Shown: positions 4,973 to 41,345, numbered from the stretch's first letter. The stretch is 44,392 nt of DNA from a virus (IMGVR_UViG_2778261532_000008), one strand, 5' to 3'. Notes: a model not told the origin generated them from the letters alone. Numbers and translations: made by a program.

Positions 4973-4993
4973 ACAAGTGACTTTCAATAAAAT
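4973..4993 (+). promoter_or_regulatory. late-promoter-like element ACAAGTGACTT-N4-TAAAAT upstream of the head gene
   Basis: Member of a 5-site motif family seen upstream of late operons in this window. Confidence 0.4.
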
Positions 4994-5044
4994 CTCTTCC
5001 GAAAAGGGATTCACACAAGTGCCTTGTGTTTAAGGAAGAGTAAA

Positions 5045-6751
5045 TTGAGTAACTTACGCGAATACCAGAATCGTATTGCAGATATCGCAAAACGCTCTAA
5101 AGCTGTGCTTGGCTGGGCAAGCACTGCGCAGTTCGGTACTGATAACCAATTCATTAAAGATGATGCCGCGCGTGCCGCATCTATCCTTGAAGCTGCACGT
5201 AAAGACCCGGTTTTTGCGGGTATCTCTGATAATGCCACCGCTCAAATCGCTACAGCGTGGGCAAGTGCACTGGCTGACTACGCCGCAGCACATAAATCTA
5301 TGCCGCGTCCGGAAATTCTGGCCTCCTGCCACCAGACGCTGGAAAACTGCCTGATTGAGTCCACCCGCAATAGCATGGATGCCACTAATAAAGCGATGCT
5401 GGAATCCGTCGCAGCAGAGATGATGAGCGTTTCTGACGGTGTTATGCGTCTGCCTTTATTCCTCGCGATGATCCTGCCTGTTCAGTTGGGGGCAGCTACC
5501 GCTGATGCGTGTACCTTCATTCCGGTTACGCGTGACCAGTCCGACATCTATGAAGTCTTTAACGTGGCAGGTTCCTCTTTTGGTTCTTATGCTGCTGGTG
5601 ATGTTCTGGACATGCAATCCGTCGGTGTGTACAGCCAGTTACGTCGCCGCTATGTGCTGGTGGCAAGCTCCGATGGCACCAGCAAAACCGCAACCTTCAA
5701 GATGGAAGACTTCGAAGGCCAGAATGTACCAATCCGAAAAGGTCGTACTAACATCTACGTTAACCGTATTAAGTCTGTTGTTGATAACGGTTCCGGCAGC
5801 CTACTTCACTCGTTTACTAATGCTGCTGGTGAGCAAATCACTGTTACCTGCTCTCTGAACTACAACATTGGTCAGATTGCCCTGTCGTTCTCCAAAGCGC
5901 CGGATAAAGGCACTGAGATCGCAATTGAGACGGAAATCAATATTGAAGCCGCTCCTGAGCTGATCCCGCTGATCAACCACGAAATGAAGAAATACACCCT
6001 GTTCCCAAGTCAGTTCGTTATCGCGGCTGAGCACACGGTACAGGCGGCGTATGAAGCACAGCGTGAATTTGGTCTGGACCTGGGTTCCCTACAGTTCCGC
6101 ACCCTGAAGGAATACCTGTCTCATGAACAGGATATGCTGCGTCTTCGCATCATGATCTGGCGCACTCTTGCGACCGACACCTTTGACATCGCTCTGCCGG
6201 TTAACCAGTCCTTTGATGTATGGGCAACCATCATTCGTGGCAAATTCCAGACTGTATATCGCGACATTATTGAGCGCGTTAAATCTTCTGGTGCGATGGG
6301 GATGTTTGCTGGTGCTGATGCAGCATCTTTCTTCAAACAGTTGCCGAAGGATTTCTTCCAGCCAGCCGAAGACTATATCCAGACTCCGTATGTTCACTAC
6401 ATCGGTACCCTGTTCGGTAACGTGAAAGTGTACGAAGTACCTGCTGGTATTTGTAAGAACTTAACGACAGAGAACATTCAGTTCAGCTCGATGGATGTGC
6501 TGTGCTACGTCCGTGATGAAAATCCGGGTAAAGCAGGCTTCGTGACTGGTGATGCTGTCCCGGCCATCCCGTTCCAGCATCCGACCACTCCGGCGCTGGT
6601 CAACCGTACCACGCTGTGGGGTTCGGCTATCAACGATATGCACCCACGCAACGGCGCTGATTACTTCACTCGTGTAACGCTGACAATGGCCAAAAAAGGC
6701 GGGCTTAACTTCATAAGCGGCGACACGATTGATGCCGGTGACTCTGAGTAA
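5045..6751 (+). CDS. putative major head (capsid) protein precursor, P1 gene 23 position; TTG start at 5045 preferred over TTG 5024
   Basis: AAGGAAGAG Shine-Dalgarno 7 nt before TTG 5045; large ORF directly after parS as gene 23 is in P1; function assigned by synteny only. Confidence 0.5.
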   Translation: MSNLREYQNRIADIAKRSKAVLGWASTAQFGTDNQFIKDDAARAASILEAARKDPVFAGISDNATAQIATAWASALADYAAAHKSMPRPEILASCHQTLENCLIESTRNSMDATNKAMLESVAAEMMSVSDGVMRLPLFLAMILPVQLGAATADACTFIPVTRDQSDIYEVFNVAGSSFGSYAAGDVLDMQSVGVYSQLRRRYVLVASSDGTSKTATFKMEDFEGQNVPIRKGRTNIYVNRIKSVVDNGSGSLLHSFTNAAGEQITVTCSLNYNIGQIALSFSKAPDKGTEIAIETEINIEAAPELIPLINHEMKKYTLFPSQFVIAAEHTVQAAYEAQREFGLDLGSLQFRTLKEYLSHEQDMLRLRIMIWRTLATDTFDIALPVNQSFDVWATIIRGKFQTVYRDIIERVKSSGAMGMFAGADAASFFKQLPKDFFQPAEDYIQTPYVHYIGTLFGNVKVYEVPAGICKNLTTENIQFSSMDVLCYVRDENPGKAGFVTGDAVPAIPFQHPTTPALVNRTTLWGSAINDMHPRNGADYFTRVTLTMAKKGGLNFISGDTIDAGDSE

Positions 6752-6811
6752 TCAGGGGAAGTTCTCCGTTTAACATAGCGCCCCCGTGCGGGGCGCATAA
6801 CAGGGAAAGTT

Positions 6812-8401
6812 ATGTCTCAATATTCAATTCAACAGTCATTAGGTAATGCATCCGGCGTCGCGGTTAGCCCGATCAATGCCGATGCGACGTTATCTACCGG
6901 TGTTGCATTAAATAGCAGCTTGTGGGCTGGTATTGGCGTATTTGCGCGTGGCAAGCCGTTTACTGTTCTTGCGGTTACTGAGTCCAATTACGAAGATGTT
7001 CTCGGCGAACCGCTGAAGCCGTCTTCCGGCTCACAGTTCGAACCAATTCGCCATGTATACGAAGCTATTCAGCAAACGTCAGGTTATGTTGTTCGTGCTG
7101 TTCCGGATGATGCGAAGTTCCCGATTATTATGTTCGATGAATCAGGCGAACCGGCTTACAGTGCGTTGCCATACGGTTCTGAAATTGAACTTGATAGTGG
7201 CGAAGCCTTTGCTATCTACGTTGATGATGGTGATCCGTGTATTTCACCTACCCGTGAGTTAACCATCGAAACGGCAACAGCGGACAGCGCGGGTAATGAA
7301 CGCTTCCTCTTAAAACTGACCCAGACGACTTCGCTCGGCGTGGTAACGACCCTGGAGACACACACTGTGTCTTTGGCGGAAGAAGCGAAAGATGACATGG
7401 GCCGCTTGTGTTATCTGCCTACGGCTCTGGAAGCCCGTTCTAAATATCTGCGCGCGGTTGTTAATGAAGAGCTGATTTCGACGGCGAAAGTAACAAATAA
7501 AAAATCGCTGGCGTTCACTGGCGGTACCAACGGCGATCAGTCGAACATTTCCACTGCTGCTTACCTGCGTGCGGTGAAAGTGCTGAACAATGCGCCGTAC
7601 ATGTACACCGCTGTTCTCGGCCTGGGTTGCTATGACAATGCGGCGATCACTGCGTTAGGTAATATCTGTTCTGATCGCCTGATTGATGGTTTCTTTGATG
7701 TCAAACCGACATTGACGTACACGGAAGCGATCTCTGCTGTTGAAGATACCGGTTTACTTGGTACCGATTATGTAAGCTGTGCTGTCTATCATTTCCCGTT
7801 CTCCTGCAAAGACAAATGGACCCAATCCCGTGTGGTCTTCGGTCTGTCTGGCGCGGCGTATGCGGCGAAAGCTCGTGGCGTCAAGAAAAACTCTGATGTC
7901 GGCGGTTGGCATTACTCACCGGCTGGTGAAGAACGTGCCGTCATTGCTCGTGCGTCAATTCAACCGCTGTATCCGGAAGATACCCCGGACGAAGAAGCAA
8001 TGGTCAAGGGCCGTCTCAATAAAGTATCTGTAGGTACCTCTGGCCAGATGATCATCGACGATGCTTTAACTTGCTGCACGCAGGATAACTATCTGCACTT
8101 CCAGCACGTCCCATCCCTGATGAATGCAATCAGCCGTTTCTTTGTCCAGTTAGCCCGACAGATGAAGCATAGCCCGGACGGTATTACTGCGGCTGGCCTG
8201 ACTAAAGGGATGACCAAACTTTTAGATCGCTTTGTCGCCTCCAGCGCTCTGGTGGCTCCTCGTGATCCTGATGCTGACGGTACAGAACCGTATGTGCTGA
8301 AAGTTACGCAGGCGGAATTCGATAAATGGGAAGTAGTCTGGGCCTGCTGCCCGACTGGCGTAGCCCGTCGTATCCAGGGCGTACCGCTGCTTATTAAGTA
8401 A
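6812..8401 (+). CDS. putative contractile tail sheath protein (P1 gene 22 position)
   Basis: 529-aa ORF following the head gene; assignment by synteny with P1. Confidence 0.45.
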   Translation: MSQYSIQQSLGNASGVAVSPINADATLSTGVALNSSLWAGIGVFARGKPFTVLAVTESNYEDVLGEPLKPSSGSQFEPIRHVYEAIQQTSGYVVRAVPDDAKFPIIMFDESGEPAYSALPYGSEIELDSGEAFAIYVDDGDPCISPTRELTIETATADSAGNERFLLKLTQTTSLGVVTTLETHTVSLAEEAKDDMGRLCYLPTALEARSKYLRAVVNEELISTAKVTNKKSLAFTGGTNGDQSNISTAAYLRAVKVLNNAPYMYTAVLGLGCYDNAAITALGNICSDRLIDGFFDVKPTLTYTEAISAVEDTGLLGTDYVSCAVYHFPFSCKDKWTQSRVVFGLSGAAYAAKARGVKKNSDVGGWHYSPAGEERAVIARASIQPLYPEDTPDEEAMVKGRLNKVSVGTSGQMIIDDALTCCTQDNYLHFQHVPSLMNAISRFFVQLARQMKHSPDGITAAGLTKGMTKLLDRFVASSALVAPRDPDADGTEPYVLKVTQAEFDKWEVVWACCPTGVARRIQGVPLLIK

Positions 8402-8410
8402 GGGAATACA

Positions 8411-40578: not shown

Positions 40579-40775
40579 AGTCTTTCCTCTGCTTAAAACC
40601 TGATGTATTGCGCCTTCAGGTGGGTCAGGAATGTTTTCCCACCAGCGAAAGCAATATCTCGGGGTGTTCTTTTCGTGAAAAGCGCGTGCCATTGCCAACT
40701 TTGGCGTTTGTTTGCGAGTTCGTGCTTTTGTCGGCGTCTGGACCACCGCTTTTCTTTCAGTCGTTTTTTACACAT

Positions 40776-41264
40776 TCAAAACGGAATATCGTCGTCAAAG
40801 TCCATTTGAGGTTCGTTATTGGCGTTGCTCTGAGGTTTACCGCCACCACTGTATTGCTGGTGGTTTTGAGGTTGGTTTGATTGCCCCCAGCCATTTGAGG
40901 ACTGTGAATCGTCACGGCGAGCGCCGATCATTTGCATGGTGCCGCCCTGGCTGACGATAATTTCCGTCGTGTAACGTTCTACACCGGCGTCATCTGTCCA
41001 CTTACGGGTTTTAAGTTTCCCTTCGATGTAGACCTGAGAACCTTTTCGTAAATACTCACTCGCAATTTCAGCAAGTTTTCCGAACAAAACGACTTTATGC
41101 CATTCTGTTTGCTCTTTCTGTTGGCCCGTTTGCTTGTCGCGCCATGATTCATTCGTTGCGATGCTGAGTCTTCCGACCGCGCCGCCATTTGGTATATACC
41201 TGATCTCCGGGTCTTGCCCCAGGGTACCAATCAGGATGACTTTGTTTACACCGCGTTGTGCCAC
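40776..41264 (-). CDS. ssb: single-stranded DNA-binding protein
   Basis: OB-fold N-terminus highly similar to E. coli SSB ([46 protein letters not shown]), Gly/Gln-rich linker and acidic tail DFDDDIPF. Confidence 0.95.
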
Positions 41265-41283
41265 TTATCTTACCTAATAAAAT

Positions 41284-41300
41284 AAATTAATTAGAGCAAT
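41284..41300 (-). promoter_or_regulatory. C1 repressor operator-like site between ssb and lyz
   Basis: Reverse complement ATTGCTCTAATTAATTT matches 16/17 of consensus. Confidence 0.55.
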
Positions 41301-41324
41301 AATGTATATCTTTGAAACGTAGCT

Positions 41325-41345
41325 AACAAGTGATTTGCATTATCC
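41325..41345 (+). promoter_or_regulatory. late-promoter-like element ACAAGTGATTT-N4-TATCCT upstream of lyz
   Basis: Motif family member. Confidence 0.35.

Follow-up and report, generated by a model that had tools for sequence, protein, structure and literature searches.

Five sites upstream of late operons in a phage-plasmid of the P1/P7 type are almost certainly its late promoters LP23, LPsit, LPs, LPdar and LPlyz, which depend on Lpa (Table 1). The DNA analyzed, a stretch of 44,392 nucleotides from the virus IMGVR_UViG_2778261532_000008 (hereafter the window), is a segment of such a phage-plasmid (Punavirus). It shares 97.6-97.8% identity with P1 and P7, and its plus strand is equivalent to the minus strand in the P1 reference record AF234172. 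The same operons are found downstream of all five late promoters in P1, P7 and the window. Upstream of LPsit, the window carries upf50.5 and upf50.0, as in P7, whereas simABC is located there in P1. An IS200/IS605-type element downstream of the lyz unit distinguishes the window from both P1 and P7. A plasmid with an annotated lpa gene, pEC21Z048-103K, was the top match in a single search of its collection, with 100% identity over the 801-bp query.

Table 1. Late promoters, transcription units, terminators and hairpin in the window (positions counted from its first nucleotide).
Feature	Position	Strand	Description
LP23	4973..4993	+	ACAAGTGACTT-TCAA-TAAAAT; AC and -22 box AAGTGACTT (4975-4983), spacer TCAA, -10 TAAAAT (4988-4993)
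LPsit	17049..17069	+	ACAAATGACAA-CTCG-TAGAAT; AC and degenerate box AAATGACAA (17051-17059), spacer CTCG, -10 TAGAAT (17064-17069)
LPs (Ps)	25249..25269	+	ACAAGTTACTT-CTCT-TACAAT; AC and -22 box AAGTTACTT (25251-25259), spacer CTCT, -10 TACAAT (25264-25269)
LPdar	32079..32099	+	AGAAGTTACTT-TGCA-TACCAT; AG and -22 box AAGTTACTT (32081-32089), spacer TGCA, -10 TACCAT (32094-32099)
LPlyz	41326..41346	+	ACAAGTGATTT-GCAT-TATCCT; AC and -22 box AAGTGATTT (41328-41336), spacer GCAT, -10 TATCCT (41341-41346)
LP23 unit	23 start 5045 (TTG)	+	23 (major capsid), 22, 21, pmgG, bplB, pmgF
LPsit unit		+	pmgC, tub, pmgB, sit, pmgA, bplA, 16
LPs unit		+	R, S, U' (tail fibre)
LPdar unit		+	lydA, lydB, hdf, darA, ddrA, ddrB, hxr
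LPlyz unit	lyz start 41434	+	lyz, lydD/lydE
Intrinsic terminator	10872..10903	+	after pmgF; 14-bp stem followed by a run of T
Bidirectional intrinsic terminator	29204..29223	.	between U' (+) and U (-), flagged on both strands
Hairpin	17060..17094	+	13-bp, CTCGTAGAATCTG-N9-CAGATTCTACGAG; 5' arm contains the LPsit -10

The annotated records of P1 (AF234172) and P7 (AF503408) list exactly five late promoters in the syntenic stretch, each composed of a “-22 region” and a -10, and these features match the five sites one to one, with base-for-base alignment to the promoter, -22 and -10 features of AF234172. The 19-mers of LP23, LPdar and LPlyz are identical to those of P1. LPs differs from the P1 LPs/Ps promoter by a single spacer base (atct in P1, ctct in the window), and the LPsit box is of the P7 type (AAATGACAA), whereas P1 carries AAATGACTA, a degenerate box also used by P1 LP26. 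The five motifs are thus already catalogued in P1 and P7 and are nothing new. Both records label LP23 as “predicted”, and their notes on LPsit refer to no previous identification, while the notes for LPs, LPdar and LPlyz in the P1 record do. The first-pass annotation had read the recurrent motif as a series of activator-dependent, Lpa-type late promoters. This reading is supported by the coincidence of all five sites with annotated promoters and by Lpa dependence itself, which is the accepted mechanism in the literature (PMC10695390; PMC1891329, the latter citing Hansen et al. 2003).

All five sites share a common layout, in which a 9-bp, partly palindromic -22 box resembling AAGTNACTT, usually preceded by AC, is followed by a 4-nt gap and a -10 hexamer. 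The match to the palindrome is perfect in LP23, LPs and LPdar, 7/8 in LPlyz (AAGTGATTT) and 5/8 in LPsit. Box degeneracy spans the same range in the annotated P1 set, as illustrated by LP26 and by LPpac (ATGTGACTT). A -10 with A2 and T6 lies exactly 4 nt past the box in every case, and the hexamers have 4-5 of 6 matches to TATAAT. No -35 box was detected: the best match to TTGACA at a spacing of 16-18 nt was 1-2/6, for a background mode of 2-3. An extended -10 (TGn) is absent at all five sites, and a sigma-70 scan called none of them, which bears out the claim that these promoters lack a -35 box. The arrangement originally described proved real at all five places, except that the lyz site had been positioned 1 nt too low (41325-41345 instead of 41326-41346). 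The consensus proposed with it, ACAAGT-N-A-Y-TT, fits three of the five sites but is too strict for LPsit (ACAAATGACAA, three deviations) and LPdar (AGAAGTTACTT, one deviation).

We then compared the abundance of the motif with chance expectations. The pattern ACAAGTNAYTT-N4-TNNNNT occurs three times in the window for 0.017 expected. The exact pattern AAGTNACTT-N4-TANNNT also occurs three times, with no occurrence in 60 Markov-1 simulations, and six times with at most one mismatch (0.67 expected). Allowing up to two mismatches in the strict pattern gave 21 matches for 10.8 expected, which is unspecific, and LPsit needs three mismatches; a position weight matrix (PWM) was therefore used instead. 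It was trained only on the five P1 late promoters located outside the window (LPmat, LPpro, LP26, LPpmgL and LPpac). Among about 88,700 positions on both strands, LP23, LPs, LPlyz and LPsit ranked 1 to 4, respectively, and LPdar ranked 8. In random sequence, 0.025 matches reached the fourth score or more and 0.95 reached that of LPdar or more, so that LPdar lies near the level giving about one chance match per window. It had been stated beforehand that a motif equally frequent inside genes would speak against late promoters. The motif is commoner outside coding DNA than inside it, with counts far above expectation and all five sites located in the intergenic 7.55% of the window (probability for five random positions, 2.5e-6). 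All five are on the plus strand, and their -10 hexamers end 28-87 nt before the start codons of plus-strand late genes (23, pmgC, R, lydA and lyz).

Conservation in relatives was assessed next. The Lpa protein of the Cronobacter phage JK004 is 67% identical, and the motif is present at all five orthologous positions of this phage (LPsit, ACACATGACAACTCGTAAAAT; LPs, ACAAGCGACTTCCCATAAAAT; LPdar, AGAAAGCACTTTCACTAACAT; LPlyz, ACAAGCGATTTGGGATACGAT), with 13-16 of 17 informative bases kept, for a gapped identity of 30-61% in the 70-nt upstream flanks. For LPsit, 15/17 informative bases are conserved versus 26/87 in the upstream flank. The LP23 motif is also kept in Salmonella pCVMN1543 and, amid otherwise unalignable sequence, in a Pantoea plasmid. 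The situation differs in phage D6, whose homologous, Lpa-like activator is only 31% identical. The D6 late promoters, which precede the orthologous genes prt, lydA, R, pmgB and ddrB, carry a different box, AAATCACANACT, separated by a 3-nt gap from the -10 (six matches of box and -10 for 0.06 expected), but this box fills the same 15 nt directly upstream of the -10 as in P1-type promoters. A different box together with a diverged Lpa would be anticipated if the box determines the specificity of the activator. The D6-type box 3 nt before a -10 is absent at the five sites of the window, which carry AAGTGACTT, AAATGACAA, AAGTTACTT (twice) and AAGTGATTT. Judging from these boxes, the window promoters are of the P1 type and not of the D6 type.

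Other explanations can be considered for these observations. The five sites might be ordinary sigma-70 promoters, either constitutive or regulated by C1, or chance -10-like hexamers, their shared upstream sequence being coincidental or the product of a recent duplication. The good -10 hexamers would fit such an origin, and overlapping sigma-70 promoters are predicted in the P1 record close to LP23 as well as ahead of pmgC and lyz. However, sigma-70 promoters were rejected as the explanation given the silent scan and the missing -35 and TGn elements, chance was rejected on the PWM ranks and pattern counts, and the box stays conserved where flanks have diverged in the JK004, Salmonella and Pantoea relatives. 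As for duplication, the flanks of the five sites are mutually unrelated, and the sites are therefore not duplicated cassettes. We consider this explanation extremely improbable. We give equally little credit to the idea that the palindromic box is primarily the site of another factor (a repressor at its operator, a nucleoid protein or a packaging protein) and a chance neighbor of late-gene -10s. The over-representation of bare AAGTNACTT, found at six loci for about 0.5 expected, three of the copies being inside genes, would fit this idea. However, the fixed 4-nt spacing to the -10 at all annotated late promoters points to a promoter element, as does the case of D6, in which the box type changes along with the Lpa type. 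Furthermore, the annotated C1 operators of P1 and P7 are located elsewhere than the five boxes, and the literature assigns the box to Lpa.

It is also conceivable that only LPs, LPdar and LPlyz are functional, LP23 and LPsit being look-alikes and the capsid and tail operons being read from other promoters or by read-through. The way LP23 and LPsit are recorded in P1 and P7 would agree with this, as would the degenerate 5/8 box of LPsit and the sigma-70 promoters predicted upstream of both operons in the P1 record. Nevertheless, no position in the window scores higher with the PWM than LP23, whose conservation extends as far as Pantoea, LPsit is far better conserved in JK004 than its upstream flank, and its degenerate P1 box is shared with P1 LP26. 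A restriction to three functional promoters thus appears very unlikely, and the conservation observed here argues for LP23 and LPsit as late promoters.

As Lpa-dependent late promoters, the five sites would function as follows. The literature places lpa, which encodes the gp10 activator, under the control of the C1 repressor, and describes the host RNA-polymerase-associated protein SspA as the co-activator that Lpa needs for transcription start. According to PMC1891329, which cites Hansen et al. 2003, Lpa is a sequence-specific DNA-binding activator acting via SspA, which itself does not bind the DNA of late promoters. The host sigma-70 RNA polymerase would recognize the -10, with the box near -22 replacing the -35. 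In the mechanism known from the literature, Lpa on the box, together with host SspA, recruits this polymerase; the activator at -22 would substitute through SspA for the missing -35 contact, and the morphogenesis and lysis genes would therefore not be expressed before derepression of lpa. Transcription start sites are predicted about 6-8 nt past each hexamer; no structural or genome-wide transcription start site study of P1 late promoters was found in the literature searched. No lpa gene was detected in the window by tblastn (best E = 1.4), as expected since lpa lies at 89991-90443 in P1, about 26 kb outside the window. Conservation of the gene reaches 100% among P1, P7 and the majority of close relatives, and 98.7-99.3% in three others, so judging from these relatives it is probably present in the source genome.

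A shared logic is found at the Francisella virulence promoters controlled by MglA-SspA-PigR, where an SspA-family protein on sigma-70 RNA polymerase is the target of a sequence-specific DNA-binding activator; PMC1891329 explicitly names Lpa/SspA of P1 as the precedent. The analogy is functional only, as the Francisella system is bacterial, its activator is unrelated, its DNA element and the position of this element are different, and ppGpp is involved. In T4 middle promoters (MotA box with AsiA) and in P2/P4 late promoters dependent on Ogr/Delta, a phage activator element also replaces or supplements the -35 contact and redirects the host sigma-70 polymerase to later genes. The MotA box is located at about -30 and the Ogr dyad at about -55, and the proteins are unrelated to the Lpa system. 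The polymerase contacts differ as well, sigma region 4 being remodelled by AsiA in T4 and the alpha subunit being the contact in P2/P4.

The gene assignments made beforehand for the downstream operons were right, namely 23 as the major capsid protein gene, pmgC-tub-sit-bplA-16 for tail and baseplate, R-S-U', lydA-lydB-darA, and lyz. The transcription-unit map drawn from the motif holds for the five plus-strand late units, and the early, immunity and plasmid-maintenance units fall outside it. Of the five units, only those of LP23 and LPs were found to end in a canonical terminator; the terminator after pmgF is the likely 3' end of the former and the one between U' and U the likely 3' end of the latter.

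The perfect palindrome AAGTNACTT is also present at three unannotated intragenic places (9320, 13075 and 22167) that lack a good -10 at the proper spacing, so the box may also be bound in roles other than that of a promoter element. At 13073-13093 (+), the sequence GAAAGTGACTT-TAGC-CAGCAT has the 4-nt spacing to a usable hexamer and ranked fifth with the out-of-sample PWM. This site overlaps the repL start codon, and any transcription from it would run antisense into kilA. It could be an unrecognized late promoter whose antisense transcription shuts off the early kilA-repL operon. In 80 repL loci from IMG/VR, which are 93-99% identical, the box region is almost invariant, with little divergence against which conservation could be judged. 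No kilA-repL module was found in JK004 between the bplB-like and pmgC-like genes, as judged by gene order and sizes (all its genes are annotated as hypothetical), and no box was found at the D6 repL start. The hairpin that includes the LPsit -10 has a predicted energy of -19.7 kcal/mol (z = -5.7) and is preserved in both P1 and JK004, with two double changes that are compensatory. It could be a promoter-embedded insulator that stops upstream read-through while sparing transcripts started at LPsit. A role for the Lpa box beyond the five catalogued promoters, with a late antisense promoter at 13073-13093 and the LPsit hairpin as insulator, is on the whole unlikely. Downstream of LP23 (z = -0.33) and within the 5' UTR of LPdar (z = -2.05), hairpins were unconvincing.

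The result advances no open question, and its main value is that of a quality check: a reading of raw sequence alone recovered the full set of late promoters curated for the syntenic part of P1 and P7, and the mechanism it proposed was correct. The conservation data add modest support for LP23 and LPsit, the two promoters annotated without earlier identification. In an annotation of this phage-plasmid, the names LP23, LPsit, LPs, LPdar and LPlyz can confidently be given to the five sites, which together define the structural, lysis and anti-restriction genes that wait for Lpa.

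On sequence criteria, the five late-promoter-like sites are members of the P1-type family of late promoters dependent on the phage activator Lpa (P1 gp10). Across the whole P1 genome, 11 late promoters are recorded in the curated entry AF234172; the segment syntenic to the window holds exactly five of them, LP23, LPsit, LPs, LPdar and LPlyz. In every case the annotation comprises a 9-bp "-22 region" separated by 4 nt from a -10, and these features coincide base for base with the window sites. LP23, LPdar and LPlyz share their 19-mers with P1, LPs has a single changed spacer base, and LPsit reads AAATGACAA in the window versus AAATGACTA in P1. 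The P7 record (AF503408) lists these same five late promoters for the stretch and no others, its LPsit feature mapping to window 17049-17069. Every sequence-level defining feature of P1-type late promoters was tested and found, and the Lpa-type reading of the first-pass annotation is already known, a rediscovery of curated annotation. Direct reading gave the upstream element, 4-nt gap and -10-like hexamer at all five sites, while the literal consensus ACAAGT-N-A-Y-TT fits three and fails at the other two. The lyz site, previously placed at 41325-41345, lies one base to the right (41326-41346). The 11-nt element proposed earlier, with AC before the 9-bp box, describes the sites accurately (AC in 8 of 11 P1 promoters and four of the five here), a minor descriptive matter.

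The proposed lack of a -35 box was borne out. The best TTGACA match at 16-18 nt spacing was 1-2 of 6 bases at all five sites (background mode 2-3), the TGn extended -10 was absent from them, and a sigma-70 consensus scan called none. The five-site pattern is more than chance: its original form occurs three times in the window against 0.017 expected, and the annotated core AAGTNACTT-N4-TANNNT has three exact matches against none in 60 simulations, or six against 0.67 expected at up to one mismatch. We built an out-of-sample weight matrix (PWM) only from LPmat, LPpro, LP26, LPpmgL and LPpac, five P1 late promoters outside the part covered by the window. Among ~88,700 positions on both window strands, the five sites ranked 1, 2, 3, 4 and 8; Markov-1 random windows held 0.025 positions reaching the fourth score and 0.95 reaching that of LPdar. 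All five sites are on the + strand and intergenic, and intergenic sequence makes up 7.55% of the window (p = 2.5e-6 for five random positions). By counts, ranks and placement, therefore, the motif is not equally frequent in coding sequence.

Gene order was obtained by mapping P1 proteins onto the window, whose + strand matches what is the minus strand in the reference records. By megablast, window 4000-12000 is 97.8% identical to P1 and 97.6% to P7 across the full 8 kb. The par genes and the genes replacing sim are of P7 type: parA and parB are only 58% and 43% identical to their P1 counterparts, and upf50.5 and upf50.0 stand in place of simABC. The mosaic backbone involves window 2605-4778, 15956-17020 and 28667-31043. 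The invertible C-segment is oriented opposite to AF234172, and IS1 and isaB are absent from the window.

Gene order and positions of promoter sites and associated features
Feature	Position	Strand	Details
Left block			ppfA-mlp-upfA-repA-parA-parB, then 23-22-21-pmgG-bplB-pmgF
Next			rlfB-rlfA-repL-kilA-ant-icd (minus strand), then two P7-type genes
Middle block			pmgC-tub-pmgB-sit-pmgA-bplA-16, then R-S-U'
Next			U, Sv, cin (minus strand), then lydC
Next block			lydA-lydB-hdf-darA-ddrA-ddrB-hxr, then isaA, orf281, ssb (minus strand)
Right end			lyz-lydD/E, IS200/IS605-type ORF, pro (minus strand)
LP23 site	4973	+	ACAAGTGACTT, gap TCAA, -10 TAAAAT; -10 end to 23 start codon 51 nt
LPsit site	17049	+	ACAAATGACAA, gap CTCG, -10 TAGAAT; to pmgC 31 nt
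LPs site	25249	+	ACAAGTTACTT, gap CTCT, -10 TACAAT; to R 30 nt
LPdar site	32079	+	AGAAGTTACTT, gap TGCA, -10 TACCAT; to lydA 28 nt
LPlyz site	41326	+	ACAAGTGATTT, gap GCAT, -10 TATCCT; to lyz 87 nt
Intrinsic terminator, strong	10872-10903		closes LP23 unit
Intrinsic terminator, strong, bidirectional	29204-29223		closes LPs unit
LPsit hairpin	17060-17094	+	13-bp stem CTCGTAGAATCTG-N9-CAGATTCTACGAG, -19.7 kcal/mol, z = -5.7
GC-rich 11-bp hairpin CACCCCGTCCGTAGGGCGGGGTG	25225-25249	+	-21 kcal/mol, z = -4.6
LPdar 5' UTR pairing	32102-32121	+	CCUCCU with lydA Shine-Dalgarno AGGAGG, z = -2.05 (weak)
Perfect AAGTNACTT palindromes in genes	9320-9328, 13075-13083, 22167-22175		pmgG, repL, sit
Unannotated late-promoter-like site	13073-13093	+	GAAAGTGACTT-TAGC-CAGCAT
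Sigma-70 consensus match	13868-13896	+	best of the window's first 15 kb
Terminator, strong	14050-14079	+	~150 nt 3' of the sigma-70 match
402-aa ORF	42371-43579	+	between lydD/E and pro
Phage D6 (L008) box sites	19215, 25221, 27727, 31511, 38115, 45491		before late genes

Each of the five promoters heads a late unit on the + strand, two of these units being closed by terminators, so the earlier claim of a transcription-unit map holds to that extent. Canonical terminators were not found between gene 16 and LPs, 3' of hxr or 3' of lydD/E, which makes it plausible that transcription runs on from the tail unit into R-S-U' and past the end of the lyz unit into the IS-borne ORF. None of the five promoters serves the plasmid-maintenance, immunity, replication, cin or ssb units. 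The map is therefore of use, though incomplete. The 402-aa ORF 3' of the lyz unit, from which no canonical terminator separates it, lies inside a ~1.3-kb insertion and shares 93-94% identity with elements of RCS47, SJ46 and others that carry an IS200/IS605 insQ transposase annotation.

Potential RNA structures adjoin three of the promoters. The 5' arm of the LPsit hairpin contains the LPsit -10 hexamer, and the structure is kept in P1 and Cronobacter phage JK004 with two compensatory double changes. Transcripts started at LPsit would be without this arm, and upstream read-through would carry the entire hairpin, which may be an insulator or terminator, though it has no T run. The hairpin between gene 16 and LPs directly adjoins the -22 box; it lacks a T run, and JK004 has not kept it. 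Pairing in the LPdar 5' UTR might damp holin translation.

The AAGTNACTT palindrome occurs at six loci, three genic and three in promoters, against ~0.5 expected. Those starting at 9320 and 22167 have no usable -10 at 4-nt spacing on either strand. The third belongs to the unannotated site overlapping the start codon of repL (minus strand), a candidate whose -22 palindrome is perfect and whose spacing is correct; it ranks 5 with the out-of-sample PWM and would run antisense into kilA. Its region is near-invariant across 80 related loci, too little variation to gauge conservation. By coordinate arithmetic, the nearby sigma-70 match is at the position of P1-annotated PaskilA (P53as), an antisense promoter inside kilA, whose RNA probably ends at the terminator downstream.

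Lpa homologues in the phage collection sort into three classes: P1-like (98.7% identity or more), JK004 (67%) and D6 (31%). In JK004, the twelve best matches to a P1-trained matrix are all intergenic and directly 5' of co-oriented genes, one of them, on the + strand beside the lyz site, preceding an ssb-like gene. Every one of the five window promoters has its positional orthologue among them, and each of these orthologues keeps 13-16 of 17 informative bases in an anchored comparison, with gapped identity of just 30-61% in the 70-nt upstream flanks. The motif of LP23, a promoter labelled "predicted" in the P1 and P7 records, is kept in Salmonella plasmid pCVMN1543, which is 73% identical (ACAAGTGACTT-GCAA-TAAAAT), and in a Pantoea plasmid with unalignable surroundings (AGATGTAACTT-TCCT-TAGAAT). 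D6 has a different box, AAATCACANACT, common to the regions 5' of orf16, prt, ddrB, lydA, R and pmgB and lying 3 nt before a -10-like hexamer (six matches against 0.06 expected). Another box at the same position, together with a strongly diverged activator, is expected if the box is the activator recognition site.

The lpa gene was not found within the window; it is present in the plasmid that headed the single search of the plasmid collection (801-bp query, 100% identity) and in all close phage relatives. Passages of PMC8201110 and PMC8198154 describe Lpa and the host co-activator SspA as required for late genes, and PMC1891329, where it cites Hansen et al. 2003, has SspA associating with RNA polymerase and not itself binding late-promoter DNA. 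Beside the directly observed anatomy, orthology, -35 absence, position and conservation, transcripts would start 6-8 nt downstream of the hexamers, and Lpa bound at about -22 would compensate, via SspA, for the absent -35 contact. The C1 operator preceding lpa in the P1 record explains the early-to-late timing.
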